64,000 nt of DNA from Cyanidioschyzon merolae (Eukaryota). The notes beneath the pieces were generated by a model, which had not been told where the DNA came from, did no database searches, and saw only the letters and a program-made list of their open reading frames with translations. Position numbers and translations under genes: made by a program. The DNA lies in NCBI GenBank assembly GCA_000091205.1, contig AP006501.2; one strand, given 5' to 3'. This document shows, one piece after another, positions 483 to 58,829 of this stretch; position 1 is the stretch's first letter; each line of letters opens with the position of its first letter.

Positions 483-508
483 CGCCAGTTCACAGGTTAT
501 CTTTTCTT

Positions 509-17950: not shown

Positions 17951-18696
17951 AAGGCTGGGAGGCGTCGAAAAGTGGGTGAATAGATATACCCCCATGGTCG
18001 TGACACATTGTTCGTTGTGCTCACCACGTATGTAGATGCTGGTGCGAGCACCGTATGCTATGGCAACAGGGTAATGCTTTCCTATGAGAACGGGCCCTGG
18101 GTCCTTTGGCTCCGATGCCGTCTCGTGCATGCCCGTATGCATCGCATCACGCTCGGCAGCGTGATCGACGAGCCCGTTTGGAGCATGTCACACGTGTGTC
18201 TCGGTGCGGTATAATTTCGGAACTCTCGAATCACCGGTAGAGTCTTTATTGTACTAGAGCTCGCTTTAGCGGCACGACAGACTCGAATGCGTGACGCGTT
18301 GGCGGCCGTCAGAGCGCCACTAAGGGCTGTGGTGGCTCGGCTATCTTGCCCCGGCACATGGACATATTATTCCGTTTCCCCATCATAATCACCAGAGCCG
18401 CATGTTCCATGTCCATCCATACTGCCTGCTCAGATTGCTGCTCAACCGACTACGCTTGTATGGCATACGCATTAGGCCATCGAAGCCAATAGGCGCTTGA
18501 GACTAGAACGCAACAGCTGCAGCCATGCATAGTTGCCTCCTCGTGCGGCTGGCGCCCGCTAATGTTTGCGTTTGCGCAGTCTCATACAAGCGCGGCCTTC
18601 GTCACGTCAACAAAATGAGTCTTATTCGGCACCAGGTGGCGTAGTCGAGCGGTCTCCATCTGAGCATGCGATCGCCACGCACACCTGCAACGACCG

Positions 18697-18912
18697 CCGC
18701 TGTATCGATGGCGAGCTTAGTTTTCCTGGTTCAATGCATCCATCCGACACCATCTAAAACAACCAGCACCGCTGTATCGATAGCGAGCTTAGTTTTCCTG
18801 GCTCAATGCATCTATCCTACACCATCTAAAGCGATCAACACCGCTGGATCGATGGCGACTTTGGATTTCCTGGCTCAATGCATCTATCCGACACCATATA
18901 TGGCGAGCAACG
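18697..18912. repeat. Minisatellite, 3 tandem copies of a ~72-bp unit
   Basis: 'caccgc(cg)ctgtatcgatggcgagcttagttttcctggytcaatgcatcyatccgacaccatctaaa...' appears three times in tandem. Confidence 0.85.
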
Positions 18913-23325: not shown

Positions 23326-24912
23326 CTACACGGCCTGCTCGTTTATCTCACCAAGATGATCGATGCAACTGATTCGCAGCGTCGACGTTGGTTTCTGGAT
23401 GCGGCAACGTCGGCGTATGTCGTCCAGAGCGATCTGAAAATATTCCACCGGACGAGCGGAATCTAGAAACTCATCGTGATCGGCTACATCTCCGTCAACA
23501 TAGTACCCGATATGACCAATGCCATTTGGTGCAAATATGTGCACGAATCCATTGGCGTCTAGTGTTATGCGCGGTGAACGGCCCACTGCATGTAGTGGAT
23601 GACTCGGGCGTTCACTGGCGGAGGCGCCGTTAGTAACAGGTAGCATACGAGTGACCGAAGCGTGTGGTGCATTCGCAACCTGATAAGGAACACGCGCATC
23701 ATGCTCTAGTCGCTCGGGTGATGGTAGTGGTGATGCGGCTGGTTGCGCAGTGAACGAGGCCCAGTCCGGCTCTATCTGCTCTACAACAGCAAGTGCACCA
23801 ACAAAGTGCCGATGGAAATGCAAGCGGCAAGCAGCACTCCTATCCCAGTGCGGTTCGTGTGCCTCCCGCTCTGGATCTGGGTCTTGCACCGTGAAAAGAC
23901 GGTAGAAATAGTCAAAGCCGCGGGCCATGATACCACCACCGCGGCACGGATGCGGAAGCGACAGACAGTGACCCAGTTCATGCAGCATCGCGCCAATTGT
24001 TGTGGAGGCCAAGGCCCAGCGTTCACCGCGACCGGCGCTATCATCGAAGAAGTTAATTGAGTCTACGCGTCTCCGATCACTAAAGCGCTTTGGCACTTCT
24101 GAGAGCGTCTGTGGCCATGCGTACATACCACTGGAGCCAAAGAGCGCTAACGTGCCTCCACCAAGTGCTGTGTGTCCATACACACGGCCTGTGCTCGCAT
24201 CTTTTGACGTGAAAGACATGACAGCCACGTCGATACACTGCTGGCGGTTAGATATGTTCGAGAGCTCCTCAGCAATCATACCCCAGAGCGCGTCACCCGA
24301 AAGTGCATGCAGCTCGGCTCGTGTCCGCGACAGACGCCTTACATGAACAGGTACATCATAGGCGCAGTGAATCTCTTCGATATTCCCTGGCAACGGAGTC
24401 GCACACGCAGCGCTCATACGTTCAATGCAAAAGCTCAAATGACCGAGGCCTTGCTCATGAAGCAACTCTGCGGCAGCTGTTTGCATGAGTCGTAACGCTA
24501 ACGCGAAACGGCGCACGGCGCTCGCAAGCATACAGTCTTCGTCGGGCGGAGCTTGGAAACGCACCTCCACGGCGTCTCGCGGCACGACGTAGACTGCTCG
24601 GACTACATAGTCCCAGGGGACGTCCAGATAGTGAACGCGAAACTGCAGTTTCGCTGGCCCGCTCAGCGGACCCGCAGCGACAAGGTTTACCCCTGGTTGC
24701 AGCCAGACTAACGCTCGAAACCTACCATCGCAGTTGCGCACAGGCCAAGGCGTTCGTTGCTGTTCAGCAACCAAACTACCTGGTTGAGCATTTGCCAAGT
24801 AAACGACGACGCACGTGAGGTGCTCATTGAGCGGCACCTGACCGCATATCAGAAGCAACGGAAACGTTACAGCTTCGTCTGGTCGGAGGTTCTCAACCCG
24901 CCATCGCACCAT
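23326..24912 (-). CDS. Putative zinc metalloprotease (metzincin-like HExxHxxxxxH motif)
   Basis: 528-aa ORF with an ATG at 24912. 'AMLHELGHCLSLPHP' has the metzincin spacing HExxH-5-H, with Ser in place of the Gly. I cannot assign a closer family. Confidence 0.45.
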   Translation of the reverse strand: MVRWRVENLRPDEAVTFPLLLICGQVPLNEHLTCVVVYLANAQPGSLVAEQQRTPWPVRNCDGRFRALVWLQPGVNLVAAGPLSGPAKLQFRVHYLDVPWDYVVRAVYVVPRDAVEVRFQAPPDEDCMLASAVRRFALALRLMQTAAAELLHEQGLGHLSFCIERMSAACATPLPGNIEEIHCAYDVPVHVRRLSRTRAELHALSGDALWGMIAEELSNISNRQQCIDVAVMSFTSKDASTGRVYGHTALGGGTLALFGSSGMYAWPQTLSEVPKRFSDRRRVDSINFFDDSAGRGERWALASTTIGAMLHELGHCLSLPHPCRGGGIMARGFDYFYRLFTVQDPDPEREAHEPHWDRSAACRLHFHRHFVGALAVVEQIEPDWASFTAQPAASPLPSPERLEHDARVPYQVANAPHASVTRMLPVTNGASASERPSHPLHAVGRSPRITLDANGFVHIFAPNGIGHIGYYVDGDVADHDEFLDSARPVEYFQIALDDIRRRCRIQKPTSTLRISCIDHLGEINEQAV

Positions 24913-24971
24913 TCACGCCGTTCGAAAGTCGAACGACGCGAACGGTGTACAGTAGTGGCGGCAACCGCGCC

Positions 24972-27377
24972 CTAGACGAAACGTATACAACTGACGTTCA
25001 GACGCCTTCCAGCCTTTTTGGACCGGCCACCCACTACTGCTTCCAACTTTTTCGCATATAGTTCGACTTTGAGGGGTTGCCTAACAACATTCTCTCGTGT
25101 CAACTCCGGAGGTCTCTTCTCCAGCACCGCGCATTTCCTTAGATTGATGGCGGCATTAAAATCTCGATTCACGAATTCCATCCGTTTCTTGCCATCACTG
25201 GCTGTATTCACTAATGCGAGTAATCCTCGCACTTTTGCCCTCCTTTCCATTTGCTCCCCCGTCAGCGGCCCATACTTTTTTATATCCTCAGGGCACCTCT
25301 GGCACTTTTCCATCTCGACCCTCTGAAGTGTACACCCCAGTTCAGGGTGTATATAGGACGTCCGGAACTCATCTATAGGTATCGTAACGAAACGCCGTGC
25401 ACACTCCTTGTATATTCTTGTCGTTGGAGCAGGCGTAGTTCCTTTTTGGGTCTTCCAACACCCTGCCCCATACGCTACGAAGAGCCTCTGACCTTCATCC
25501 TCCTTCAAGGCGCTCAACTGATTGGAAAAAATTCGCGAACGCCCGCTGCCTCCCACCGTATACATTCATACGCACTCGAATCCACCGAGGCTTGGTATAC
25601 TCCTCCCACAGCGCATCCCAATGAGCAACACGAACTTCCATCAATTTCAGAAAAGCCTGAAAGTCCGCATTCCGGCTCGTCACCTCACTCATAGCTTCCA
25701 GGCGATCCTTCATTCCTTCGTTCCATGTCTCAATTTTCTTCCTTGCATTCATTATACCGGATTCCCGATAATATCTTGCTCTCGAGAACCCCAAAGTTCG
25801 CATGTCTTTCTGACGTAAGCTACCGTCAATGACATCTTCCGCACGCTTGGGTGCTGCGATGGTAATGATATTCGTATTCCCAGGGTCCGCGCCAACGACA
25901 AAGTCGTTATCCTCTACCTGCTGCGTCGCTGGATCCTCCTTCTCCTTTTCTCCATGCTTCGTCACGGGCTCAGCCGAAGGCAGGACTGGACGATCTGTCT
26001 TGAACCGCCCATAGTGTACACACATGGCTACTCTATCGGATTCCATCATCCTCTTGAATACCTTTTGTTTACTCATTTTGAGACGTTTGAAATCTAAGAT
26101 ATCCTTCCAGTACGTCTCCCGGTTTTCGCCGGTGAAGTCCTCCCTGCTAGCATCAAACTCGGGATTGATATCCCTCATGATGCCGTTATGGACGCCGAAG
26201 TCGATACTCACAAAATGTGACTTGATGTTGCACAACGGAACGCCGTTGAAGCGCTTTCCCGTTAGGAAAGCCTTCCGTCTCTCCCACTCTTCATTTTTTT
26301 CCCCACTCAGCTTCATCTCTGCCTTGCGTTCGAGCTCTCGGTCCAGAAACACAAAATAGCGCAGGATGAGGCCATGATATCTTTCCTTACCGTTTTTCAA
26401 CTCTGATATCTTTTCTGCTAGATTCGCCAGCCCCAAGTCTGCGCGGCGCTCTTGAATAGCCGCACGGATTACAGAAGCTTCATTCGTGCTCTCGTTTGAC
26501 GCCTTCTTGTCGACGAATTCGATCTCATCTTCACGCTTGCGATCTTTCGTGATGCCGTCGATAATCGCCCATTTTCCATTGCGAGACAGACCCGGGTAGA
26601 GTGCAGCCACGCGCGTATCATGAAACGTTCGAGGTTCATGTTCAAATGGTTCTTCAGATTCGTGAGGTACTTCATAGCCCCATAGTCGTAAATATCCCGG
26701 TCACCCTTGTATCGAGTACCCTCGAAGCAGAATTTCGCGAAGTTTTCGTGGAGGACGTGCACCCGCTCATTTTCCCTCCATGTTTCCTCTGTACCAAGCA
26801 TCAGCTGACGAACAAAGGTCTTATCGAAAAACTCGTCCGGAATCTCGACCATTTCCACGTGCGTCACGTCGCGATACATCTCCCTCACCAAATGCATCAG
26901 TCCTGATGACGCCTTGACAATACTCTTGGAGTACGAATCGACACGGTTCCTAATGGCCTCTCGCAACTTTTGTTTGTGAGGATCCTTGTTATGTTTAAGA
27001 AGACAGGTTTTCACCACCATCTCGTCGTACTGTCTTCTTTCTCGCAGCCTTGGACGTGCGGCCTCCTGCCTTTGCTTCTTCTGCCCTTCCTGTTCTTCTT
27101 CGCCCCGCCATGTTTTTCGTGTTTCTCCACCAACCGGCGACACAGGGCCCCAGGATCCTCCGCTTCCACTTCCATAACTTTCCATTTTTAATTTTTTATA
27201 ACGCTCTCTGAACGCTTCTGCTCCAAACAGCGAAAAATCACTTGAATACACTTGCTTGAGTGTTGAAACACAATTGAACTGAATAATATACGTTGCTACG
27301 ACTTTAATGAAAATAAAATTTGCCGGGTAGAACAACACGCTACAGATTAGGATTCCATTCCTCTTCAACGGCGACAT
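24972..27377 (-). CDS. Fanzor-like (eukaryotic TnpB/OMEGA family) RNA-guided nuclease gene, near-intact. It is split over three overlapping ORF segments (26469..27377, 25495..26610, 24972..25565)
   Basis: The N-terminal segment has a K/R/E-rich NLS-like region. The middle segment carries RuvC-I ('[17 protein letters not shown]'). The third segment carries RuvC-II ('[16 protein letters not shown]'), a zinc finger ('[14 protein letters not shown]') and RuvC-III ('[15 protein letters not shown]'). The order RuvC-I, RuvC-II, ZnF, RuvC-III and the 'RDxNAAxN' motif are characteristic of TnpB/Fanzor. The frame changes between segments are consistent with either tiny introns or inactivating frameshifts. 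Confidence 0.8.
25518..25563 (-). other. Candidate 46-nt GT-AG intron joining Fanzor ORF segments 2 and 3
   Basis: On the minus strand the sequence 'gtatacggtgggaggcagcgggcgttcgcgaattttttccaatcag' begins with GT and ends with AG. Removing it joins '...RVRMN' in frame to '[19 protein letters not shown]...'. A length of 46 is not a multiple of 3, which explains the frame switch. Confidence 0.35.
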
Positions 27378-27794
27378 GCGCGTCGTGTCTCGTGACCACC
27401 TGATCCGGAGGTGCGCGTACCGACCGCGCTATACAAACGAAGAGCAAAAATGAATCATTAAATAGCGACGAGGTAACAATGTCTTTCTTCCTCTACGAGA
27501 AACGTAAAAAGGATGAAAGTTTTTCGTATTGTGGAAAAGTTTACCTTACAGGCGGAGGGTCCTGCGAGCTGGACGATTCTGCTAGGCTGGTGCTCGGTGT
27601 GCCTCTAAAGTGGCGGATGCTGTAGCGAGACCTGCGCAGCTCGTCCGCAACGCAGTTTTTTGGGACTAGGGGCAACAAAGCCGCGTCTGGGCGTCGCCCT
27701 GTTGCGGTGGTCTCCTAGTATATCGTTTCGCGCTGCCGCAGAAAGTACGTCCGTCAGCGCAGCTTGCAGACTCTCAGAACTATTATGTACTCCG

Positions 27795-28010
27795 AGACGA
27801 TGCCAGGTGCACCACGCCTCGAGCCGACGCCCTCAGTAGTATGGCAAAGCCGTTCTGTCTCCGTGCAGCATCCGCACCAGCGGTAGGCGCTACATCTGGT
27901 GCTGACGCCAGGCACTTGCTGCACGATAGAATGTACGAGACAACCTGTATATCCTCGAGGAAGTATAAGAAATGAAGCTTGAAGGTAAGTGCATCATAGT
28001 GGACGCTTTC
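27795..28010 (+). repeat. ~200-bp interspersed repeat, copy 1 (family also at 34738-34860 and, inverted, at 46005-46235)
   Basis: Nucleotide alignment by eye: 'cctcgagccgacgccctcagtagtatggcaaagccgttctgtctccgtgcagc...' matches the reverse complement of 46005-46235 and the forward strand of 34745-34860. Confidence 0.7.
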
Positions 28011-28335
28011 CCGAAAGCAAATATCCATCCCGCAATCTGGGATCCATGGTCAATATAAACGTCTTGTCATCGAAATATGCCTCCCGACTGGGGGACGCGT
28101 CAGCGTCGCAGCGCATCGCTGCTGGCGACCCGACGGCTGGACACGTTTCCTCTGCGTATCTGTGCCGCACGGCGCTGCAGTGCCTGGAGACTCCAAGAAG
28201 TGGGGTGTGCGTTTTGTTTGACGGATCGGTAGTGGTTGGGTGTGCTACAGTTCCACGAAGCAAACCGTTCTGCTTAGTTGTGTTCTCTCTAGAGTTCTTT
28301 CCGCGGAGGCCTGAGACTTAGCGAATTTATTTGTT

Positions 28336-28773: not shown

Positions 28774-30307
28774 GCAATTGGTCAGGGGTGTGCCATGCGT
28801 CTCGTGGCTCGATCAATAGACAGCTCACACCATCATGGACGATGTGGCCGAACTTGGAGTATCATATGGTTTGCGCCCCGTAGCGGGCAGCTCTGTGCTG
28901 CGTAGACAGGTCTCTCCGAACCGTTGCATATGTCATCCAGGATTTTGCATGTTATATATGAAGAACCCCTCCTGCAGATCGAGGAAAATCACCGTCTTCG
29001 GAACGCGAGTAGTAACCGGTCTGTTCCAGCTGTATGCGGATTGTCAGCCCGAGGTTTACTGGCAATAAATCTGGTGCTTTTCGGAAAATAGATTGAGCAT
29101 CTCGAAGGGTACATCGTAAATGCTGTATTTTCTGCATAAAGTTACATCAAAAACATGCCAAGTATCAGAGGCATAGCTCACGCCCCGGACCGTCTCAGTC
29201 TTAGCGGGATCTGCACCGGACCCTATCAGAAAGTTACTACGCACACTGGTGTATGCGTTGTCCGAAATTCGCCAACTCTACTTCCATAGTGCCGTACGGT
29301 GTAGAGGCGCGAAGCGTCCAATGAACCTGTGTGCGACAAGTCCAGCTCGGCCAATTTTCTGTGGCGCTGGGTACGTATCCACGCTTGTCGTACGTCGAAG
29401 GGCGGCTTTGCGATGCTTTCATTGATGTCGGCCCGAGGGATCGAGCACTCTGCCCCGTGCGACGTCATACTGAAGAGGGATCGTGTGGCTGGACGCATAG
29501 CGTTTCCGTCTTTGACATCATCACTCGTGTGACAGTTTTCAATAAACTCGAGACAGCTGATCTTCAGCATGCCTGGTTACTAGGACGCACCAAGCAACAC
29601 GTATGCCGTACCATTAAGAGACTGCCTTACAAAGCAGCAAGAAGCAGAAGCAAAACGCAGCCATACAGAAGGGTGGCGCTAGCGCTGGCAGTCCACAACA
29701 AACTTGGATGCTTCCAGCGAACTCAAACGGGTTACGCCTCCATTCTTCTCCGCGCACACAAGCAGCTAGCAGGGACAGTACGAAAGCTCCCGTTCCACGC
29801 GCGAAATAGACTACAAAAGGTTCTGCTTTATGATTATGATACTTGTTCTTGCCTTTATATGGAGCCGGCCGCTGCCGAATAAAAACTATCTACCGACAAG
29901 AGAACAGACTCTGCCAAGCTAATTCCAACTTCGGATGCACGTACTTGCCAACTGCGTTCAAGGGTTTTTCTGAAGACTGCACGTTGCGACTGCGGAGCCC
30001 GGCACCGCATCAGTACGCCAACTAGCGTTTTCATGGTGCAGAATCGATGAATATAGCTAGGCCAATGTCAAACTTCAATGCAACTGGTCCACGTACCGAC
30101 TTTGGGCGAAGAATCTAAAGCCTCGGCCTCATCCAATGTCATCAACGCCAGCATTTACGTATTTTTGCTGCGACTGGTCCCATTTTCTCCTTTTTTCTGG
30201 ATTACGATACGCTGGTCCCTCCTTTTGCTCAAGTTCCATTGTCAGTAGCCGAAAGACCTAGATGACGGCATTATATTTCCTTTTTCACCATTTTTGGAAG
30301 TTGCCCA

Positions 30308-31422
30308 TACAATTCATGCACAGGCGGCGGTTGCGACATGCGCGTCGTTTGCGATAAGGGAATCGTCTTGGCATACGGTCGCGCTGTACCCGCTGCAGGG
30401 GTGACACTTGAGACTGGTCAGGCGTTCCCTCAGATGCACACGAGCTCCCCGTCATCCTCCTCTTCCTCCAAGGGCCGCCCCACGGTACCTGAACGCTCCC
30501 CTCACCACCCGGTACATGCCCATGACGGGTGCAGAGTGCCCCCATGGGTGCCCGACTCCGTTGCGCGCTGTGCGCTACGTTTGCGTGCTTGTTCTGGGCG
30601 ATCCCCTAGGAGCGGACGTCGTACGCTCGACGTGCAAGCGCACCATGTTCCATTCGACAGAGCCTGTATGGAATGCAACGTTGTCCGTGGTGTAACGAGT
30701 GGCCGACGGAAAACCCAGGCTGGAGATTTGTTCGAGAAATTTGGATTTATGTTCACTCATTTCGTGCTAAGCTGCGACGCGTCCTCTACAGGAAGCGATC
30801 GCTACGATCGCTCAAGTTCGAGTCCATAACCGTATTCCGTGCAAAGAGAACAGACAGGAGCCTCTAAGGCATATTCCGTGGGACTTGTGATGCTTCATTC
30901 GAATGGAGCTTCCCTGATGTCCACAATAGGGGACGATTTGTCTTCGGAACGGAACCGATCATCGGACCTGAATCGGGCGGTGGTCTTTCAGCATGAGCTT
31001 GTGGGCACGTCGCCAAGGGACGACGCGGGCTACTACGTGCTCTCGTCGATCCATCGGCGCAAGTCGCTGTGCCCAACGAGCATCCTTGCAACAAAATAAG
31101 CGAAACCCCGGGAAGTCGGTGATTTGAGCACACTCCTGGCTGTCCAATTTGACAAGTAGAGGCTTGAACGTAAGCGTTGGATAATGGCATGTATTGATTT
31201 ACGAAAACTTGCTCTAAAGCGTCCTGAAAATGGCGATTTCGGTAACGTAACAAATTCCGGCGGCAGAGCGTCGTGTTTGCAAGTCCCAGAGGAAAACAAC
31301 GCAACCTTAAGCTACGGTGTAATCCTTACGCCCTCACTGCTTGAATTCGAGTGTGCAGGCTGTACACCTGGGAAGGGTTCGCAAAAAATCGCTAGCCAGG
31401 TACAGGGCGGGCGTTCAGTCTT
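30308..31422 (+). repeat. Inverted repeat arm 1 (~1.1 kb), partner at 33616-34727
   Basis: Identical ORF translations occur on opposite strands (30338..30829(+) = 34207..34746(-); 30864..31304(-) = 33753..34172(+)). Both boundaries were read by nucleotide comparison. The arms are near-identical apart from a few indels and SNPs. Confidence 0.9.
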
Positions 31423-32227
31423 GTACTTTAATCTGATACAGGCGCAGCATCGCAGCCGGGCGTGCTGTCGCCCTGATATGAACGCTCCTATACAGCCATC
31501 TGCTCGCGCTAGTTGCAGATTCCTCATCGTCGGGGAAGGTGCTCTTCTTCCAGGGAGCGGTCGATGCCTGCTGCAAATTCACTACGCCACACAGTTCCTC
31601 AAACGAAGACCAGCCATCCCTTACGCCCTCAATAATCGGGTTACTGACCCTACTCGCCAATGTGACCCTGAGCGGGCGCCATTCTGAGCGAGACCCGAGC
31701 GCTGCGTCTTCCGATCATGCGTGGGACAAACTCTCCCCACAGTTGTCCGTCGAGTGCCTGCCTGGGGCGCCACGATAACAATCGCTCGTGATGGCCCCAC
31801 CTCGGGATCGATGCTGCGCGTCATGGCACGCGTTTTACGTAGTGGCTGCCCCGGCGGCATCCCTGGGCTCACAGGATGACGCATGCACCCGCATGCACAA
31901 AGTCAGGCTCTGCACTAGAGGCTGAGATATCCGTATCCTCGCGTGGCCGGTTCAAAATACACGTATGTGCGCAGCGGTTACATGCGAGTGCCGCTTCGTG
32001 CATGAAGCAGCACCATCGCAAGCCTCCGGTGAGCCGCATTTCAGGACGTTTAAGAATCCGCTCTCGATGATTCCGGCAACCGGCTGGTGTACGAATCCTG
32101 GAGTTATTGCTGGAGAGGTTGCGGATGCTGTGGGCAAAGATGCCATGAACAGCGAAACTGCTGCCAAATTCGCGTACCGCGCATCGATGCTCTAGCGCTT
32201 CCTTAAACGACCACTGTTTTCTGCCGA

Positions 32228-33370
32228 TCAAGCCCGGCAGGAAGCGCGAATCTGTTCCGCGCTTTTGCGGCCGTAGTGGCGGATCCACGGATGCATCGCA
32301 GAGAGAACCACCAAAAGCGCCTCTTCGGTTCGGATGGTGCGACTCCCCTGATGCGGGCAAGCATTTACGTAGGCGTCGAACAACTTTGCGACGTCCGGAC
32401 TGCCATAGCTTGCTTCGAGTCCGTGGATTCCACCAAATGCAACGAGAAGCTTGCGGAAACCCCCTGGAGGAATGAATGACGCCCTCCGAGCACTCGCCCC
32501 ATCGATTTCAGTTTCAGCCGCCGTGCTGTCCGTAGCTCGTTCGGCAGAGCTACCCCAGAGGGTAGCGAAGAGGTCGGTGCCCCGCTCGCTGGTACCTATT
32601 TTCACATCAGCGCCGCTCGTGGACAGAGCCTGTACTAAGTTAGCAGCCAGTCGCACTTTGTAGCCCCAGTAAAGCCCAAGCCTTTCGCGGGGCTCATCGC
32701 GAGCGACCATCACGGCCCGAGTCCAAGTCCAGCAGCCTTGCATATGTAAAGACGGATGCGAATCCCGTTTACGCTTACGGTTCGAGCCTTGTTCCGCAAC
32801 ATAGTGTCCACTCCTCTCTAGTTTCTCGAATCGCACTGTAACGCGCTGTCCGACGGGCAACGGCATGTCAGTGTCGACAGCTACAGGAGCGTCCCAGCCG
32901 ACGTGAACGTATCGACTTCGGTCTGACGTTGCGCCAGTGTCTGGAGCGGGTACCACGACCCCCTCGCGGTACGGAGTTCCCTCGTGCCGCCGCGGATGGT
33001 GCGGTGTATCCAGCGGGTTTAACAGTCCAACGTACTGTAGTTCAGGCGTATGCGGAAAAAGCGCCTGTCGCAGGTACTGAGGGCACTCGGCATACTGCAA
33101 AAGTCTCGCTAGATGGGTATCAAAAGCCGTCGACGACGGCGATGAAACGGTGCCCGCGATAGTTGCACGGACACGCTCAGCGAAGATAATGACCTCATCT
33201 ACCTCAAAGATTGCAAGTGCTCTCGCGATCTGCCCCGCAAGGTACGTCTGTAACGCCGGGGTCTGCGCGTTAGCCAGAACGGATCCAGGCAGCGCTACTG
33301 CAAGTGTCCACGAGCGCCCTTTCTGCTCGCTCTTGGTGCAGTTGGAAGCAAGGGCAGTTTCCTGGTGCAT
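32228..33370 (-). CDS. SPOUT-domain putative RNA methyltransferase, SPOUT1/C9orf114 (DUF171) family
   Basis: The track ORF begins with GTG at 33385; the first ATG is at 33370. 'TLAVALPGSVLANAQTPALQTYLAGQIARALAIFEVDEVIIF' closely matches the conserved N-terminus of C9orf114/SPOUT1. The C-terminal 'LLVAFGGIHGLE...' trefoil-knot region is present. Confidence 0.75.
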   Translation of the reverse strand: MHQETALASNCTKSEQKGRSWTLAVALPGSVLANAQTPALQTYLAGQIARALAIFEVDEVIIFAERVRATIAGTVSSPSSTAFDTHLARLLQYAECPQYLRQALFPHTPELQYVGLLNPLDTPHHPRRHEGTPYREGVVVPAPDTGATSDRSRYVHVGWDAPVAVDTDMPLPVGQRVTVRFEKLERSGHYVAEQGSNRKRKRDSHPSLHMQGCWTWTRAVMVARDEPRERLGLYWGYKVRLAANLVQALSTSGADVKIGTSERGTDLFATLWGSSAERATDSTAAETEIDGASARRASFIPPGGFRKLLVAFGGIHGLEASYGSPDVAKLFDAYVNACPHQGSRTIRTEEALLVVLSAMHPWIRHYGRKSAEQIRASCRA

Positions 33371-33615
33371 GCGTAGAAGGTGCACAGCGCCCTTTGTTTC
33401 GGTTCAGTTATGGGCCAATTAGAAACCGTCTGAGCGCCCTCTGCTCCAGTCGATCTGAGCAACGCTGGGTCAGACAAAAATGTTTCTAAGCGTTGCAAAT
33501 GGCGTCGATGATCCAGTGCGCTGCGCGTCAGCGCGTGCTGAAGTGCTCGTTATTTGAGGACGAAAGCCATTCTGTGACTAGAGACATCTAAAGCCGTGGA
33601 ATAATAGAATAAAAG

Positions 33616-34727
33616 ACTGAACGCCCGCCCTGTACCTGGCTAGCGATTTTTTGCGAACCCTTCCCAGGTGTACAGCCTGCACACTCGAATTCAAGCAGTG
33701 AGGGCGTAAGGATTACACCGTAGCTTAAGGTTGCGTTGTTTTCCTCTGGGACTTGCAAACACGACGCTCTGCCGCCGGAATTTGTTACGTTACCGAAATC
33801 GCCATTTTTCAGGACGCTTTAGAGCAAGTTTTCGTAAATCAATACATGCCATTATCCAACGCTTACGTTCAAGCCTCTACTTGTCAAATTGGACAGCCAG
33901 GAGTGTGCTCAAATCACCGACTTCCCGGGGTTTCGCTTATTTTGTTGCAAGGATGCTCGTTGGGCACAGCGACTTGCGCCGATGGATCGACGAGAACACG
34001 TAGTAGCCCGCGTCGTCCCTTGGCGACGTGCCCACAAGCTCATGCTGAAAGACCACCGCCCGATTCAGGTCCGATGATCGGTTCCGTTCCGAAGACAAAT
34101 CGTCCCCTATTGTGGACATCAGGGAAGCTCCATTCGAATGAAGCATCACAAGTCCCACGGAATATGCCTTAGAGGCTCCTGTCTGTTCTCTTTGCACGGA
34201 ATACGGTTATGGACTCGAACTTGAGCGATCGTAGCGATCGCTTCCTGTAGAGGACGCGTCGCAGCTTAGCACGAAATGAGTGAACATAAATCCAAATTTC
34301 TCGAACAAATCTCCAGCCTGGGTTTTCCGTCGGCCACTCGTTACACCACGGACAACGTTGCATTCCATACAGGCTCTGTCGAATGGAACATGGTGCGCTT
34401 GCACGTCGAGCGTACGACGTCCGCTCCTAGGGGATCGCCCAGAACAAGCTCGCAAACGTAGCGCACAGCGCGCAACGGAGTCGGGCACCCATGGGGGCAC
34501 TCTGCACCCGTCATGGGCATGTACCGGGTGGTGAGGGGAGCGTTCAGGTACCGTGGGGCGGCCCTTGGAGGAAGAGGAGGATGACGAGGAGCTCGTGTGC
34601 ATCTGAGGGAACGCCTGACCAGTCTCAAGTGTCACCCCTGCAGCGGGTACAGCGCGACCGTATGCCAAGACGATTCCCTTATCGCAAACGACGCGCATGT
34701 CGCAACCGCCGCCTGTGCATGAATTGT
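33616..34727 (-). repeat. Inverted repeat arm 2
   Basis: Reverse complement of 30308-31422 (see arm 1). Confidence 0.9.
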
Positions 34728-34737
34728 GTGGACAGCA

Positions 34738-34860
34738 GCCGAACACCTCAAGCTGACGCCCTCAGTGATATGGCAAAGCCGTTCTGTGTCTGTCCTGCGA
34801 TCGCACCGGCGCTTTAGGAGCCATCGCTGACGCTCAAGGCGGGCTCGGCGCACGAAAGAA
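34738..34860 (+). repeat. ~200-bp interspersed repeat, copy 2 (partial), abutting the outer end of IR arm 2
   Basis: 'gacgccctcagtgatatggcaaagccgttctgtgtctgtcctgcgatcgcaccggcgct...' aligns with 27820-27930. Confidence 0.6.
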
Positions 34861-35417
34861 CTGGAAAACTGCACGGTGTCTTCGAAGGAAGCCCCGATGA
34901 GTGCAACTTGGAAGGAGGCGTAGCGATTGATGCTCCATCGTATGCTGGTATCAAGCGCACAATCGGGGATTCCCGGTCTGGGCAAACCCTCGATCAGAAA
35001 ACAGCTGGAGGCGGCGATATCGAGGACTGCAACGCTACGATCAATATCATTCAACTGCGTACAACCGCGTTGGACAGACAGGAGAGACCGGTATATGTAA
35101 AGCTGAAGATATGAAAGAGAAAAATGATCAGTAACAAGAAACTTGCAAAGGATGGTGTTGATGATATTGGAATAGGCCTAAACTTAAGAGTCTTTGCCCA
35201 AGTTCAGTGAGTGAATCCGTAATACTCTCATGTGACATGGGTGCGAAGAAGATCGGCCAACGTGCATCAACTGCCCGATGCGCGCCAAAATACGCGCGCG
35301 GACGCTGCTCGAACGCGCCTCGGTCGGCAATTTCCCGCGGCAAGCTTCTTCCCGCCTGGTACTCTCTGCCCTGCGTTGGCGTGTACCCAATATTCACAGA
35401 AGAGCCTTTGTGAAAAC

Positions 35418-38501: not shown

Positions 38502-38826
38502 TGAATCTAGGGTTTAAACTAGCCGCTTTCGTGTTCCTAGGAAAGAGTTTGTAGAAGAGTCCAACCAGCTTGCTCCGATCGTTGCAAGCAACCCGTTGGA
38601 AGCGATCTAGCTGGCGGGTCCAGGCGATTTGGCTTAGCCTGCAGCCTGCCTTTAACAACGATTAAAGGATTTGAGCACAATAAAACCTCAAGTAAAGCAC
38701 GCAAGCCTTTTCACGAAGCCGCTCACGTGGAATAGGAGTTCTGTAACAGTCTTTGCGACGATATGCACTTGCTCGAAGCGGCCGTCGCCGATCGATGGCA
38801 GGCGAGGCCGTCAACCACCCAAACCC

Positions 38827-41010
38827 GAGCGTCTCTAACATAGTCTGCTACCTCTATTATGTTCCACCGCAGGTGCGAGTCCTTTACGGCCTCTTCGCGG
38901 TTTACCGCAGATTCATTCGAAGCGCGTTCATCTTGAAGAAATACAGTATTCAAGGGGAAGGTATGCACGTAAAAGCCGAGGATCCTGGAGGACCGTCATC
39001 CCTGGCTGCCCGAAGAAAACGCAAAAAATCCTCTCATCGCCGATCATCGAGCGAAGACAAGCAAGTTACGAGGAAAAAAACAGAATAGGGGACACAGACG
39101 ATAAAAGGTGTTTGCTAGACGTGACAATGACGAGACTGTTGTGGCGCAGGGGGCGCGAGTACTTGGAATTCTTGCAATGTTGAGCTCCACCAGCGTCAAT
39201 GCACGCAAGGAGTTCGTGAATCGAGACGTGAACGCCGCCATCTATACCAAACGATGTGCGGTGCTGAAGAGGATACCCGAGGCGCTGGCGCGAGCCCGTC
39301 TTGTGAGGCAGCCTCTCAGGCTCGAGGTATACATGCAGAATCTGGAACTGATAGCAGGCGGCCGGTCAGACGAGAGAGTGAGGCGTCTGCGAGTGGGTGT
39401 CTATGTACCTATCATGGTCGTGAACCGCTGCTCGTTGTACCGACTATAAACTTAGAGCAGTGGATTCTGGAACAACTTTTCGAGGGCGCGCTTTTGTTTC
39501 GATTGCTTTTCTCGCAGGTGTTCAACCAAGCAATTGTGTACTTTAGGTTCGGGGGAAAGTCGCGAAACGTTTTGAGCTTTTTATGGCTTGCGTGCGCAAA
39601 CCGCCGTCATTCTGAACTGAAGGCAACGCAATCCGATAAAGTGCATGAATCAGCTGTCTCGTAGTGCCTGTTCCTAGAACTGCGCTCCAAAACGAGAACG
39701 TACCAGACGCCACCTACAAGCCTTGCTCGTTTTCAATCCGTTCCACTCCACAGTTCCGTTCAGAAAAAGCAGAGAAAAAACCACACGATATGAAGATTCT
39801 GTACCGTCGATACCGACGGTAATGAAGAGGCACGGGTGGACGACGCAAAAGCACGTTGCTCCGTGAGACCGTCGTACGTTGAACGAGACGCGCACACTCT
39901 CATACGCACACCCGCGATCGATTACATCATGAAAAGCGAGCGGTTACTACGGGACGGACGAGTGCTCGTCGCTCTCAATGAGACTTCATTCAGAGAAGCG
40001 TGCAGACCTGGACACGGGCGCCCTAACAGGGATCATCGATGTTCGCACACCAGGAACACGCGAGTATTCCGAAAAGATCAGCAGTAGCAGCAGCATGGAA
40101 ATCGTGTGGTCGCCTACTTTTCGCCAAACGGGCGGGATTGCCCAACAGCTCATTCGCGGTCGAGGCAGTCCCCAGGATGCAGAGCTGAAGTGGATGCCCT
40201 GCACGCTTGCTCCGGGGTGCGCCTTAGCGACCATGCGGCACATGCGGACGATATTGGGGCAGGGGCACAGCGAACCGCGCTGGGGCCGCCAACGGTTTCG
40301 GTTGTATAGGCCGAACTGGCGTGCAATCGCCTACGTGGTCAGTCAGTTGGACAAAGCATCGACAGACGTGTCGCATCGTTTGGTGGAGGACGAAGGCGCT
40401 CGACGTATTGCTGCGCGCAAAGCACGTACCCGTGTTCGTTGCGCGAGAGCGCACACCGAGTGCAGGAATCGATGCGGTACGTGCTCCCGTTGATGAGTTC
40501 AAAACGACGTATACGCATCACAAGCATGTGTGCACGCCGAAACGGGTAGAGAAGACGAATGTGAAACGGAACCTGATGCACGACGTGGTGTGCGGGAAGC
40601 GGGGCATCGTCAGGTAGCGACGAGGGTGCAGGTGAGCGGCTGGCAACGGCGTGATTCCCCGAGCAGCCACGCGTGCAAGCACATTCTGCGCGGAGACTTG
40701 GGCGTCTCAACGAGCACCCGGAAGCGTCTCGTGCTTCCGGAGCGTCCATCGGTTTTGCATGAAGCGAGCGCTCGAGGTAGTAATCGGTTCGACCTTCGCG
40801 GCGCCATGGTACTGGAACGCAGAAGGCTTGCGATGAAAAGAATCAGTGGCGGCGAGAGAGGGCTCTGGATTCCCGACTGGAGCTATGCACTGGTACGATA
40901 TGGATCAGCAATCGAGTGAGACTCGTGTACTCTCATATATACGCTGTGATTTGGATTCCCTGGCAGTTGGAGAAAGATCGTGCTGATATACTATCCGATT
41001 TTACTGCGGA
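38827..41010 (+). mobile_element. Copy B of the ~2.2-kb repeated non-autonomous element: a Fanzor 3' fragment (38835-39460) plus the 1.5-kb core (39461-41010)
   Basis: Near-identical to 56635-58824 inverted; the core is identical to 7264-8784. The ends were read from where the three copies diverge: left 'ccgagcgtctctaaca', right '...gatcgtgctgatatactatccgattttactgcggatat'. No target-site duplication is seen. Confidence 0.8.
39108..39449 (+). pseudogene. Fanzor/TnpB C-terminal fragment (RuvC-III) inside copy B
   Basis: 'ARVLGILAMLSSTSVNARKEFVNRDVNAAIYTKRCAVLKR...VRQPLRLEVYMQNLELIAGGRS' aligns with the intact copy's '[41 protein letters not shown]...[22 protein letters not shown]'. Confidence 0.75.
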
Positions 41011-41354
41011 TATGAAGCGAGATGCAACACAGTGTTTTGATATAAATCCGCGCATTCAAACCTATAGACTTTCAGATGAACTTTGACACTCGCAACACAA
41101 ATCTCGCTCGTTGGAGCTGCTCGACTCGCGGCGTCTAGCCTTCTCGAAACTGGAATGCGACTGCCGGACAGTCACAGTTGCAAAACGTTCGCTGCGAAAT
41201 CGGTCATTGGGACAGTATTTCCAACCATCCACGGCTATTTCATGTGCAAAAGCTCTCCAAGCCGTAGAATTTGCAGTGTTTTCTTTTTTATAGGCATGCA
41301 CATGAGCTTTCTTATTTTGACGCTCCAAAGAACTAGTGTCTGATTCGGCGATCG

Positions 41355-44399: not shown

Positions 44400-45908
44400 A
44401 ATTATCGCTCTTTACAGATTCCTTGGTTGAAGCAACCAGTCAATAAATAAAAATATATCGTCATTGGAACAAAAAATGTTTGTCGAACAGTGAGAGTAAA
44501 CATATAAACTCAAGCGCAGACGACTTCCAGCCATTTTTGACCGGGCACCTGCTATCGGTTTCAGCTTCTCCTTATACACTTCAAGCCTGAAAGGCAGCTT
44601 CACGAAGTTCTCTGGCGTCAGCTATGCGATTCTCGTCTTCAGCACCGCACATCGTCTGATGTTGATATCGGTTTCGAAGTCTCGGCTCACGATCTCCTTG
44701 CATACATTGCTGCTAGTTAACGTTATTTATGCAAGGGTTCCTTGAACTCGTGCCCTTTGTGCCCCTACAGTCTCGTCATCCTACTGTCGGGCAGACACCT
44801 TGCATCGCACATCTCTCATCGTCATCTTTTCCGTGGTCACTTGCTCCTCATCGCTCGATGGTCGCCAAGGAGAGAATTTTTCGCTTGTTCGTCGAACCCG
44901 CAGGCAAGGGGCCTCCAGGACCCTCCACTTCCATGTCCATAAGTTTCCTTTATACAGTATGGTCTTGAAAATGAATGCACCTCTTTATGAACTCAGGTGA
45001 GAAAATTCCTCAAGCGTGAAGCTCTTGCGTAGGAGAGACGAAATGTGCCCCAGTGTGTCGTCGTGTGCTGAAAGCTTCAGCGATTCGGCCAGCGGAGGGA
45101 TCATTACGTTTCACGATCCAAAACGGTCATTCGAAGACGTTGAATCACGGCAATTACGGAGGGATGAAAAGCTACTGTACCCAGGCAGGATCCGCAAATG
45201 CTCGAAACCAAGTCGAATTGTTAAATACCATGTTGATCAATGGAAGGACGTCGCCAGACGTCAGGAGTAAAGTCTTTAATGATTCCACAAACTTGGTGGC
45301 GCTGTTGTATGAGCCTTCTTCACTTGCGAAACTGAGGCCATCAAATGAATCCATTCCAGCTTGAACTGATGAAGATATCATCGTTCTCTTCGAGTACCTT
45401 CATGCATGCATCGGGCCCCCAGTCAGCGAATACCCATCCATGCCCCGATCGTTTTTCCGAAGAAGGTTTCATCGATTTGAAAAACATACCAATGTCTCTG
45501 TGCTTCATATCGATCGCAGCGTTCCGAGAATTCTGTCGTTGCGATTTCGGTGGAAGCTGACGTTCATTGAACTTTGACTTTCTTGTAAGCGTATCCTAGT
45601 GTTTTCAAGACTACACGAACAAACTGCTGAGTAACCGAGACGCCCGTGGAGACTTTCATCGTCCTTTTTGCTTTCCGTAAGGCGATTAACGGGACGTTTT
45701 CTACCACCGACAGCAGGCAATCTCCGAGAATATTGGTTTTTTGCCTGTAGTGTACATGCTTCTCTCCTTCCAGTGTTCCTGAACCATCTGAAACTGTGGT
45801 ATGACTGACCTGCAGAAGGAATGCAGTATTCCGTGTATTGCTCAGTAAAGAACATATACTGGGCATTTCGTCTACATTCTGTGGGGTATCTTGCCGGGCC
45901 ACTTCGAT
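44400..45908 (-). pseudogene. Degenerate Fanzor-like pseudogene (X1), interrupted at its 5' side by a retrotransposon insertion. Inverted paralogue at 58830-60200
   Basis: The 3' end translates (with frameshifts) to '...RLEVYKEKLKPIAGARSK'. Its nucleotide sequence aligns with 38960-39440 and with 59830-60200. The body, 44990-45910, matches 58900-59820 inverted. The section reading '...VTQQFVRVVLKTLG' recalls '...[10 protein letters not shown]' of the intact copy. Confidence 0.55.
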
Positions 45909-48900
45909 TTTTCTTTAATCACTGACGAAATGTTTACCTAAGCCAGCGTTCTCCGATTATGCGCATTTTTCGTTTCTTAATTTTTTTGTGTTTTTTGTCA
46001 GTGTGAGGTGGGATATCCATCAACCCCCTACCTCCATGTTACATTACCTATACTTCGTCTCGGATATTCTGGTCGTTTCATGCGTCCTATCGGGTGCCGA
46101 GCCTGCCGAAAGCGACAGCAATAGCGCCTATAGCGCCGGTGCAGTCGCTGCACGGAGACAGAACGGCGTTGCCGTACCACAAAGAGCGTCTGCTCGAGGT
46201 GTGCTTCACCCGACGTAGAATCGGGTCTCGTCGTCAGTTTGTGCTCGGATAGTCTGCAAATGCAGGCTTGCCTTCGCTGCAATACACGCTGTAGAAACTT
46301 GGCTGTTAGGATATATCCTGAGAGCCGCCTCTCTCCTTCGTGATCATGCATGGAATGCGTTGTTGTCGGTTGGCAATGCGGGTTTGTGCTTGACACCCAT
46401 CACAGTGGGTAGGCACAAAGAGCACTAAACCCGTGTGCTCATCCGATTCGTTGGACCTGCTGCCTAGAAGGTAGAGTTTGAGTTTATTGGCCACTCATGA
46501 GCGCTGAGGCTCCGTTAGCGCACCATCAGTTGCCAGTGCTACACTCAGAGTGAGTGTCCGGCCTTCGACAATCACGGTGATGTCCAGCTGCTGCTGTCCT
46601 CCAAGGAACTCGCTGCGCTCCTGCTTCGAGCGCGGGCACTGTAAGCTTAAATATGTCAGCGTCTCGGGGATTTCGTCTCGATAGCAGGTACAGTGTGACT
46701 CCCAGTGCGGTTCCAGTGTTCCCGTACGGAGTAGAGCCGGTGCTGGTAGCCAGAAGCCACCAACGCGGATTTTGGCGAGCCACTGGGTACCGCGAGCAAG
46801 TCCCGGGAATTCCAGCGCCTCCCACCAGTACTTGCTTGTGTATGCTAGGTTGTAGTTCCGGTATAGAGTCAAGCCGGCGTTACTGGCGCGACTGGTACCG
46901 TGTCTACCTTCCCATATTGGCGTTCGGACCGTTCGCTAGAGGCGGCGGGAGCCTTGTACATTTCTGGGGAACGATTGGAGCGCATTTTCGCGTAAGAGGC
47001 GCTTTAGCCAAATCTGCGCTGATTTCATCCAAGTTTTCTTGCGGTGCGTTGGGGTCTGCATGAAAATCCGACTCAAAGGGGTGCGCATAGTGGGCCCTTT
47101 GGCCCGTATACATGCCCAGCAGCCTGCTGCTATCGCTTCTATCGAGGCTATTTGGAGTTCAAGTCCGAGTGCCAGCGGGTTGGTTGCTCTGCGCTGCATT
47201 GAGCATCCAACAACAACAACGAGTCGCATTGCCCTGTTGGCAGCTGTCTGCAGACGCGAGGCATTTGTGTGCTTCATGCCGCACCATTCAGCACCCCAGG
47301 TCGAAGGCTGGATGATACACATCCTTAGTGCCCTCGTACGGATTGCTAAGGGGATAGAGGGGTCGGATGGGAATGGGCGTGCGATCGCTGTACGTCTATG
47401 CATCTTGGCGATCATCTCGTCGACGTGAGCCTTTTCGTCGAGCGTCGGCGTGAGACAGACCCCCAGGTAGCGATATTTTTCCACGATCGGAATTTCCTGA
47501 TTCTGCAACCGCCATGAGCGATTGCGAATGCTCTGTGAGTCTCCATGGATGACCATGGCGCCGCACTTCAATGCTCCTATGTTCATAACCCAGCGATCGG
47601 CCCAGGCGCTGACTTGTTGCATGCTAGCCGCAAGCGTTTCCGGGGCGGGTGCCAACAGCACGACGTCGTCGGCAAGTAGAAGGCCTGCGAGGCGGTTTCT
47701 ATGTGAGGGCTCCTCATCGGGCATCTCCACAGTCTATCCACGGCACCTCAAGTCCGTATTGTCTGCGGTTGTTCAGCAGATCGTTGATGAAGATGTTGAA
47801 AAGGCGCGGGGATGCGCGGTCGCCCTGTCGCAGTCCACGGCGGATTCTTATCGAAGGGGTTCTTGAGCAGTCGCCCAGTCGGGTGCACATCCACGAGTCT
47901 GCATAGAGCGCACGGAAGAACGCTAAGCACTTTCCGGAGACTCCGGCACGTTCCATCTTCAGAAATGGAGCCTCGTGCGGGACCGTTTCAAAGGCCTTTT
48001 GAAAGTCGATGAAGCATACGTAAGTTGGTTGTTGGCAGCTAATGGAGCGACGTTGCACCACTTCAATGAAGGTCAGGTCATGGCTCATGTACTCCTCGCG
48101 GCTCCGGAATCCAGCCTGTTCTGGGGCGAGGAATTTGCGTTCCTCGAGGCCCCTCTGAGTCCGGTTCGTGAGGTTGGCGCAAAGTAGCTTCATGATTTAC
48201 GGGATGAGGCGCATAGTCCGGTAGATATTCATGTCTGTGGGGTTCGGAGTCCTTTTTGAGGATCGGTACGACCTCGGCAGTCCTCCATACATCTGGGATG
48301 TACGCTTCTTCGAACATGCGTTGGATGAGCTCCAGAAGGCGCTTGCCTAAGATTGTGTCAGGTTCATCTGGTATCGATAGTGTCCCTGTTGTCTCGTCTT
48401 TTGGGGTCGCCAGTTTCATCCACTCCGTAGGGATACCGTCAAAGCCAGGTGTTTTGCGGTTGCATGACCTTAAGAGGGTCCGGACAGATTCAGGCCAGAA
48501 GATTGGGTCGTTCCATACCGGTACCGGGTCGAGGCGCGGTAGTTCTGCAGCATATTGGTGCCAATAGATTGGGTCTTGGCAGTGCCCAGTTGCGTCTTCA
48601 TGCAGCTCTGTCCCGTGGTCTATCCAGGCCTCATTCACTGAGGCACTCTCCGTCCTCAGCGCTTCCTTATAAACAATTGGTGTGAGCCCCAGGCACTTTC
48701 TTGGTGGGTCCAGTCTCGATCGAATGGAGCGCCATGTCTCATCTTCGTTGGTGCTCTCCAGCATAGATTTCGCCAGGGAGGCGATTCTGCGATTTCGATC
48801 CTCCTGTTTGTCTTCTCTGGAAAGTTTCTTCTTTCTTTTGATAGCTTCCTCATGTTGTGCCTGTAGCGCCGTTAGGACTGCCTTCGCTTCCTTGTCTCCG

Positions 48901-50981
48901 GCGTTGGCGCGTATGGCGGTGCGGTTGACGATCTTGTTGAGTCGGTGGCATCCATCAATCTGTGCTTTTTTACGTCGTTTCAGGTACTGAGGTTTGCAAC
49001 TGTTGCGTTCTGGTGCAAGCAGTCCCAGTTCTCTGGCAATCTTCTGATTCCCATCTACATACTCGCGTGCCAATTGGTCAAAAGATTTGTATGCACGGCT
49101 TTTCGGATCTTCAACGCTGTGAGCAGGTGCCTGGGTTTGGCGACGGCTTTCTTGAGTTCCAGCTGGGGTGCCCTCTCGGGGGATACCTTGTGATGAGCTC
49201 ATTTGGGAGTTCTTTTTTCTATTCTTCTGTTTTTTTCTTGCTGGTCTTTTTCTTCTTCGGGCTCTTTCCTGAGCTGCTTTCTCTGGTTATTCTTCTGGTA
49301 CGTGGATCATGATGCCAGCGTGTCTATCCTTCCGTATCGCCTTGAGTCTCTTTTCCTATTGTAGATCACTCTATTGTTGTCTCTTCTTCGTTAATGTACT
49401 GATAATTCGTTATCTTTTCTCGGAAGGCTGCAAGTGACTTGTTGGTTAGTATCCGGGCTTGGTATGTTGAGGGTGCAATTGCTGGTAACCCTCGCTGTGC
49501 GCTCTGAGTCGTGTCGGCTACTGGTTCAGCATTTTGGTTCCTCGGGCGCGGGTACCATCTGCAGTGGATGGGCCAGTGATCTGAGGCATCCCAAATTCGG
49601 TCAACGGCGGTATGTTGGAGTGCCGGGTCGCATCGGTCGCTTAAGATGTGGTCTATCGATGAGCGAAGCAAACGTTGGTCGGTAATGCGGTGCCACGTCA
49701 GGGGTGAACCTCTACACGGATTCACCGACAGCAATCCGCATCTCATTCGTTGTAGGTGTTGCCTAAGGTGGCCCGCCGACATGTTAAAATCTCCCATAAT
49801 TATCATCGGTTCCTCATTCCGTGTGCGGCGTTTCAATCGCTGGATGTTGGAGGCCAACTCTTTGAGTGCCTGTCGGCGCATCTCACAGGCGTGTGGTATA
49901 TAAATGGAGCCCACAAGCCAAGGTGCAGGCTGACCTGGAATTGTAACACTCACAAAGACCATCCATGGAGACGGGTTGCCGACCGCATAGCAAGTGAGGC
50001 GTCGATCGACAGTGAGCGCAACACCACGTGTGCGTAACGAAGTTGGCTTGTCCGTAGGGTCTACGTACGTTGGTTCAACCGTGTTGTAGCCTGGGATATG
50101 CAGACGATAATACGTCTTTGTGTTCTCTGAGTGTAGTGTCTCCTGCAATGCCAGGATATGGACGTCTCAGCGTTCCAGGAAGTACCTTACGTCGTCTAGA
50201 ATCGAGGCTACCCCCAAAAATTTTCCATGATGCGAAACCTATCGAGTCGTAGCGCGTAAGGGAATAGGAATAGCGCTGCGGTACTCGAGAGATACGTTGT
50301 CGATTGAGATGCACCCTCCACGGCGTGTGAGAACGCACATGCCACCATTGCCTCCTGCATTCCAGTCGTTCAGTGAGTGTCTGCCGCAGCGCTAGCGTAG
50401 AATCAGATGTACATTAGTCAAAGTCGATTCGAATGCGACCTTTATCTTGCCGGACGCGTGAAGCTCCCCTCAATCACTGGGGATACGCTATGAACCACCC
50501 TGTCAGCGGCTTCGTATCCGCTCCCCAAATACATAGGCGGGCAAGTCGCTTATTCCAGCTTCGATCGCGAACATACTGCCAGCCGTCTTCCAAAGTATCC
50601 GCCGAAATTGTTCCCAAAGTTGAGGTAGGTACCCAATGTAGGAGGTAAACCGGAGCCCGAGTTTAAGGATCGATCCAAGATTTGCGCCCGAACCTGCAGC
50701 GTTGATTCGGGAGGGGCGGATAACTGCTCAGAATTTTCGTCAGCTTTTTCTGCTGCTGCTGCCTCCGCCCCTCCGTTCGTTGCGGTCAAGGTCCCTGGCG
50801 TGGGCTTCCTTCGCCGTCGCCCAAGCACCCCGTGTTTACCCACTTTCAGAGCTTCTCCGGAAAAACTAGACCTCTTAAGCAGGCATGGTGTGTGGGTCTT
50901 TAAGATAGTTGTTCTTTAATAAATAGTTTGCGACTAGTTTGTTTTGTTGTTTTTTATGTACGTTACGATTTTTTTTTCATT
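45909..50981 (-). mobile_element. Non-LTR retrotransposon (LINE) with APE-type endonuclease and reverse transcriptase; frameshifted and probably inactive. Flanked by a 15-bp target-site duplication
   Basis: APE/EEP domain 49366..50148(-) with 'MQETLHSEN', 'IIMGDFN', 'SDHWPI'. RT 46936..49202(-) with 'KTPGFDGIPTEWMKL', 'IPDVWRTAEVVPILKK', 'QAGFRS', 'FIDFQKAFETVPH', 'GLRQGDRASPRLFNIFINDL', 'LLADDVVL'. The ORF segments overlap out of frame. The direct repeat 'ccgggccacttcgat' occurs at 45894-45908 and at 50982-50996. Confidence 0.85.
46005..46235 (-). repeat. ~200-bp interspersed repeat, copy 3, embedded near the 3' side of the LINE
   Basis: Its reverse complement aligns with 27795-28010. Confidence 0.65.
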
Positions 50982-58824: not shown

Positions 58825-58829
58825 CGGGA

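Follow-up and report, generated by a model that had tools for sequence, protein, structure and literature searches.

A recently copied 2.2-kb repeat in Cyanidioschyzon merolae is probably a composite of two dead Fanzor1 relics

What has been copied, almost without change, to three places in a short stretch of the Cyanidioschyzon merolae genome? We addressed this question in a window of 64,000 nucleotides (nt) from contig AP006501.2 (GenBank assembly GCA_000091205.1), numbered from its first letter. A preliminary description had recognized here a repeat of about 2.2 kb with the remnant of a Fanzor gene at its left, and had proposed a recently active deletion derivative of a Fanzor transposon, with an omegaRNA and the right end of the transposon lying in a 1.5-kb tail. 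Our analysis leads to a different reading, to which we assign a probability of roughly 0.6: the 2.19-kb unit combines two dead Fanzor1 relics and was recently copied as one block within 52 kb. Its left part is an internally deleted relic of the CMe-1 family (mini-CMe-1), and segment T to its right contains a relic of a second Fanzor. The copies and their shared parts are the following.

38824 to 41013, plus strand: copy 2, full 2190-bp unit between eIF3e and a Tim17-like gene (self-comparison; metagenome contigs of the locus)
56640 to 58828, minus strand: copy 3, full unit, inverted (self-comparison; found with its own flanks in contigs L007 and L008)
7260 to 8793, plus strand: copy 1, segment T only, with no mini-Fanzor part and no final 26 nt (in 10 of 10 contigs of the locus)
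39454 to 40987, plus strand: segment T in copy 2, about 99% identical among the three copies, nothing else in the window being similar (window comparison)
40988 to 41013, plus strand: 26-nt right-terminal segment, in copies 2 and 3 only (comparison of copy ends)

Self-comparison of the window revealed 98.95% identity between copies 2 and 3 over 2191 bp, and 99.15% identity of copy 1 to both of them. Three near-identical copies of about 2.2 kb had been described; this holds for copies 2 and 3, whereas copy 1 comprises the inner 1.53 kb only, 630 bp of the unit being missing on its left and 26 bp on its right. The same distinction applies to the termini. Copies 2 and 3 have sharp, common boundaries, CCCGAG[C/T]GTCTCTAACA on the left and CTGCGGATAT on the right. 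By contrast, copy 1 begins at the counterpart of 39454 and, on the right, diverges after ...GATCGTGCTGAT, 26 nt before the right terminus of the other two. The left terminus once proposed for it, GAGCGTGTCTCTAA (about 7209-7222), was rejected as a chance-level match, with a score no better than that of 16% of random genomic segments.

The flanks of copies 2 and 3 proved to be unrelated when anchored alignments of them were set against those of random genomic sequence (p 0.3-0.8). Hence extended flanking homology, which the preliminary description had named as the sign of a segmental duplication, was not found for these two copies. No target-site duplication (TSD) was detected at their junctions, as had been stated before, and their left flanks (...CCCAAA and ...CACAGT), which represent only two independent junctions, have no common motif. 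The unit possesses neither terminal inverted repeats (TIRs) nor significant inverted repeats near its ends; without TIR or TSD, it differs from miniature inverted-repeat transposable elements (MITEs) and other TIR transposons. Within segment T, copies 1, 2 and 3 carry 3, 9 and 8 private changes, respectively, in a star-like variant pattern.

The left part of the unit was compared with CMe-1A, a Fanzor1 family of C. merolae that numbers about 150 copies and has a consensus of 3169 bp, to which each copy is about 80% identical; TIRs are absent, and the TSD was left undetermined (Bao & Jurka 2013, Mobile DNA 4:12; PMC3627910). TE-N2_CMe (635 bp) corresponds to the first 635 bp of CMe-1A (PMC3627910). 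The consensus was taken from supplementary file 2 of the same paper, and the full-length copy and the relics of this family are listed here.

38824 to 39453, plus strand: mini-CMe-1, internally deleted Fanzor1 relic of copy 2 (blastn to the CMe-1A consensus; local alignment)
38963 to 39088, plus strand: ATG and about 42 N-terminal Fanzor codons (MHVKAEDPGGP...), with a stop at the end (compared with the N-termini of P0008, P0030 and the CMe-1 consensus protein)
39108 to 39449, plus strand: last 113 or so Fanzor codons with the RuvC-III motif FVNRDVNAA, in a frame different from that of the N-terminal piece (tblastn E 1e-19; profile independent E-value 7e-16)
17420 to 18040, plus strand: r17k, diverged mini-CMe-1 of the same deletion architecture (70.8% identity to copy 2 over 418 nt, across the deletion junction)
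44500 to 44978, minus strand: r44k, diverged mini-CMe-1 with its 5' part replaced by repeat B (68.9% identity to copy 2 over 486 nt)
24916 to 28072, minus strand: full-length CMe-1A Fanzor1, a pseudogene with two frameshifts (86% identity to consensus 1-3169)

The unit matches the consensus only at about 787-969 and 2842-3084, with 67-71% identity; blastn gave 843-969 and 2842-3084, and local alignment extended the start to consensus 787. The mini consists of a 5' untranslated region, the ATG with its N-terminal codons, and then the C-terminal codons in another frame. The RuvC-III remnant noticed earlier is confirmed by tblastn and profile search alike. The deletion junction of copy 2 is also that of r17k and r44k, with homology continuous across it. 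The alignment of r17k to copy 2 spans 17603-18018, and its nhmmer E of 7e-95 was obtained with a profile that itself includes r17k. A related relic, r60k (59860-60200), differs in its breakpoint. The deletion architecture common to copy 2, r17k and r44k thus defines an old, diverged, MITE-like mini-CMe-1 subfamily, and the left 630 bp of the unit is, as judged from these alignments, a copy of this internally deleted, non-autonomous family. Homology among the mini copies fades at about 39440-39456, the position of the stop codon. The earlier proposal of a non-autonomous Fanzor derivative with the 3' end of the gene preserved is therefore borne out for the left 630 bp, but not for the 2.2-kb unit or its tail.

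The unit and CMe-1A occur in the same genome, are homologous over those 630 bp, and have in common the absence of TIRs and of a detectable TSD. However, the unit lacks consensus 1-786 and the 66-nt tail that lies between the stop codon and the 3' end of the consensus. It starts at consensus 770-787 or thereabouts and ends in unrelated sequence, and neither of its termini matches those of CMe-1A (CGATGACAAAACG... and ...CTTTTGAAAGGCG). Its right 1.56 kb is absent from CMe-1A, and it encodes only relics in place of a Fanzor protein (TnpB-like, with a RuvC D...E...D triad and a zinc finger). The 3' hairpin tail of CMe-1A was looked for within the unit and is absent. TE-N2_CMe is likewise a short non-autonomous relative of CMe-1A in this genome; it represents the 5' part of CMe-1A, whereas the unit has none of that region.

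The full-length copy at 24916-28072 is assigned to Fanzor by its 86% DNA identity to the Bao & Jurka consensus. The best PDB match of the window's reference Fanzor protein in phmmer was SpuFz1 (8GKH), at an E of only 0.2 and aligned at the DEFRTS region; a profile search of PDB with the window Fanzor gave nothing at E<0.01, and it had no Pfam match. The 3' end of this copy lies 3 nt upstream of the ATG of a metallopeptidase-like gene (23326-24912), and relatives are without the element at this position (spacer about 1.3 kb, against 3.4 kb here). Fragments of the first 280 bp or so of the consensus, the TE-N2_CMe part, occur at 2-144, 34746-34861 and 46027-46225 (69-78% identity). Many of the CMe-1-type Fanzor proteins P0001-P0038 from Joint Genome Institute (JGI) metagenomes carry a variable number of an acidic repeat of about 20 amino acids (aa) (…KDEEKKEA.PATQEV.DND.VV…) just before RuvC-I DPGNTN. 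Some of these proteins appear intact, up to 752 aa, and the family may therefore still code in natural populations.

Is the tail a part of the same element? Similarity searches located a second Fanzor gene in it.

39990 to 40820, plus strand: second Fanzor relic, in three frames and of a divergent lineage (tblastn, tblastx and profile)

By tblastn, residues 481-689 of the metagenome Fanzor P0040 matched 40179-40778 (E 3.5e-17), and P0039 matched 40179-40820 (E 8e-14). A tblastx comparison of the tail with the loci encoding these two proteins (L026) gave a summed E of about 1e-31 over three frames, and the Fanzor family profile matched 40245-40778 (independent E-value 6e-15). The recognizable motifs are LDTG (RuvC-I-like), VDEFKTTYTHH (RuvC-II) and HILRGDLGVS (RuvC-III-like). 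This relic is nearer to the P0039/P0040 lineage than to CMe-1, and P0039 and P0040 are only 37-39% identical to CMe-1. Its start at about 39990 was judged by eye, with firm homology from 40107-40245. The profile search found no Fanzor homology in 39454-40245, and the part from 39454 to about 39990 matched nothing in the comparisons made. No homology was found between the flanking non-coding parts of T and the P0039/P0040 loci, and repeat B (described below) and the 5' region of the full-length element show no relation to T or the unit's left end. The tail's open reading frames of 171, 98 and 129 aa are frames of the second relic, in agreement with the earlier opinion that they are not real genes. 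Cumulatively, these comparisons identify the right 1.56 kb as the RuvC half, broken by frameshifts, of a second and divergent Fanzor1 lineage, with about 190 bp in addition, and neither part of the unit can encode a nuclease.

How, then, did a block of two relics come to be copied? We propose that the composite was copied locally and recently, about 1% of divergence ago. The block would extend from the 5' border of the mini itself to an arbitrary or surrogate 3' border, and it was probably copied by one of two routes: 1) whatever TSD-less mechanism mobilizes CMe-1 elements, continuing beyond the mini at its 3' end; or 2) ectopic recombinational repair. Copy 1 would have been copied only in part or would have lost its mini. 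Two coincidences of borders bear on this proposal. The left end of copies 2 and 3 is the start of mini-CMe-1 homology (consensus position about 787, and similar in r17k), and the left end of copy 1 is the end of that homology. These coincidences suggest that the ends of the element played a part in the copying, and they fit mobilization from the 5' border of the mini with read-through, and then either the loss of the mini from copy 1 or an incomplete copying. The read-through (3' transduction) composites of Helitron and IS91 elements are comparable, in that a block runs from the 5' border of an element past its 3' border into neighbouring DNA. Helitrons insert between A and T. The unit differs from them in its ends (CCCGAG.../...GCGGATAT as opposed to 5'-TC...CTRR-3'), in the absence of a 3' hairpin, and in having a copy, copy 1, without the initiating end.

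Copy number was assessed from metagenome contigs and exact-protein look-ups. Among about 35 contigs that are approximately 99-99.8% identical to the window, the repeat occurs only in the three known contexts, and no further copies were found; the metagenome scan alone gave 2 loci. The presence/absence polymorphism envisaged for a mobile element was not seen, as the repeat is present in all contigs over the copy 1 and copy 2 loci. In contigs L001 and L012 the left flank of copy 2 is joined to the right flank of copy 1, and in L015 the gene order after copy 2 resembles the right flank of copy 3 (gene order only, unaligned). These chimeric joins may be real duplication or inversion alleles arising by recombination between copies, and assembly collapse could explain them equally well. 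The relatives Cyanidiococcus yangmingshanensis (L021) and a second one (metagenome contigs L022-L025) are syntenic with the window, and their eIF3e-Tim17 spacer measures 1409-1643 bp against 3166 bp here. Their intergenic DNA is not alignable and yielded no exact empty site (L021-L025), and no paralogous empty site was found in the window.

Several points weigh against the proposed reading. Copy 1, without either terminus of the unit, is unexplained by simple transposition. In anchored alignments its flanks marginally resemble the sequence next to T in copies 2 and 3 (p of about 0.02 on each side), a likeness that neither nhmmer nor local (unanchored) alignment reproduced, and its relationship to these two copies may thus be of another kind. 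Finally, the contigs and look-ups from which copies were counted do not directly cover the complete 10D genome.

The most serious rival is a segmental duplication of purely recombinational origin, in which ectopic double-strand-break repair or template switching put 2.2 kb (once 1.5 kb) into nearby intergenic sites without any transposition machinery. It has to be taken seriously because there are only three copies, copy 1 is without the termini, no TSD or TIR is present, and other repeat pairs of about 99% identity (repeat B and repeat I3) exist in the window. All three copies, moreover, lie within 52 kb, the ends are variable in copy 1, and C. merolae is known for efficient homologous recombination. 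On the other hand, the two border coincidences make random breakpoints unlikely, and the junctions of copies 2 and 3 display no flanking homology and no clear microhomology. We consider this origin unlikely on balance, though well worth keeping in view beside a copying in which the element ends took part.

The proposal of the preliminary description makes the unit a non-autonomous Fanzor/IS605-like element of recent activity, whose tail holds the omegaRNA and right end and which moved in trans as a guide-RNA passenger; we regard it as improbable. It accounts for the sharp common termini of copies 2 and 3 without TSD, for copies about 99% identical, and for a left part that is a genuine Fanzor deletion derivative retaining the 3' end of the gene, where the omegaRNAs of TnpB and Fanzor start. 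However, CMe-1A stops 66 nt past the stop codon, the termini of the unit are not those of CMe-1A, and the supposed omegaRNA and right-end region is the decayed RuvC half of another Fanzor lineage. Nor did RNA analyses reveal a structured-RNA signal. The 300 nt past the stop (39450-39750) fold worse than their shuffles (z of minimum free energy +1.0), and the 3' part of the relic reading frame (39250-39500) has a z of -1.2. An RNAalifold consensus of five CMe-1 3' ends, only 5 diverged sequences, had an unfavourable covariation term of +2.9. Rfam, which holds no Fanzor omegaRNA model, gave no match at E<=1 in 38600-41200, and a tRNA search found nothing. An omegaRNA in the tail is thus unsupported by RNA tests, while intact CMe-1 elements may still have one. 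No autonomous master copy was found: the 113-aa remnant finds only itself among 5.8 billion proteins, and the Fanzor pseudo-protein of the tail, used to look for its parent in protein databases, finds only the tail's own reading frames. Three copies confined to 52 kb, one of them without both termini, likewise argue against a passenger. Palindrome-associated transposable elements (PATEs, non-autonomous IS200/IS605) and TnpB/Fanzor omegaRNA loci resemble the unit in lacking TSD and TIR and in retaining the 3' end of a TnpB-like gene; the unit, unlike them, has no detected subterminal hairpins or structured-RNA signal and no TnpA, and its long tail is a second dead gene. Taken together, the tail is probably transposon debris and not a guide-RNA gene, and the unit is ordinary, with no indication of a guide RNA.

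A last alternative treats T as a separate unit that occupies a single specific site within the 3' terminal part of CMe-1-type minis, either nested there by site-specific insertion or carried as cargo. In that case one mini with T would be represented by copies 2 and 3, copy 1 would be T in a different, strongly decayed CMe-1 3' relic, and T-less relatives of the copy 2/3 mini would run on into ATACTATCCGATTTT... We regard it as the least probable of all, because the left border of T at the 3' end of mini-family homology and the marginal likeness of the copy 1 flanks to the last 40-90 nt of the mini (p 0.017-0.035) and to the 26-nt right segment (p 0.019) are countered by an nhmmer profile of mini 3' ends that misses the copy 1 flank, by a 26-nt segment with no counterpart past r17k, r44k and r60k and an unanchored p of 0.21 for copy 1, by the absence of any Fanzor remnant upstream of 7260 in tblastn, and by there being only two independent contexts. 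The 26 nt were also considered as the true right end of the mini and rejected for want of such a counterpart, and a duplication of the mini 3' end at the left end of the unit was not significant. Were the flank similarity of copy 1 real, T would directly follow the 3' border of a CMe-1-type relic in every copy. In that very improbable case it could be a nested element with Fanzor right ends as its specific target sites, or DNA that passed between loci via Fanzor-guided cleavage at the junction of right end and flank and homologous repair.

The window otherwise consists of intron-poor eukaryotic DNA with ordinary host genes, among them the following.

PCNA gene, in the window: its protein is identical to C. 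merolae 10D BAM82738.1

Repeat I3 is a 1.1-kb inverted pair, 99.5% identical (30305-31425 and 33610-34731), around a Methyltrn_RNA_3 gene (32228-33385); relative to PCNA this gene is inverted as compared with Cyanidiococcus (L021) and the second relative (L022-L024). One outer border of the pair adjoins the TE-N2_CMe-like fragment at 34746-34861. Repeat B, of about 0.9 kb and 98.5-99% identity, lies at 44969-45875 (minus strand) and 58928-59835 (plus strand). It is found directly 5' of r44k and r60k, which are much more diverged (72-80%) and to which it is joined at different Fanzor positions. One of its copies is 100 bp from copy 3, and it has no similarity to the 5' region of CMe-1A. A remnant of a long interspersed nuclear element (LINE)-like retrotransposon of the type without long terminal repeats (non-LTR) occupies 46936-50148 (minus strand), with the reading frame of an Exo_endo_phos endonuclease (E 5e-9); its match to RVT_1 is weak (E 0.002) and falls short of the Pfam cut-off. 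Between r17k (17.4-18.0 kb) and an ATP-sulfurylase gene, a 72-bp tandem repeat is present in 2.8 copies with 88% matches (18697-18897).

The Fanzor1 family of C. merolae has been known since 2013; what is added here is one low-copy composite and an apparently undescribed mini subfamily of about 630 bp. The composite calls for caution, in that what lies downstream of a Fanzor remnant is not necessarily its RNA or right end; here it is a second dead Fanzor. If T did always follow a Fanzor 3' border, it would be the footprint of RNA-guided homing in a eukaryote. As for the mini subfamily, it always retains the last 330 nt or so of the Fanzor gene, and this retention could help to delimit the cis-acting or omegaRNA region of CMe-1.

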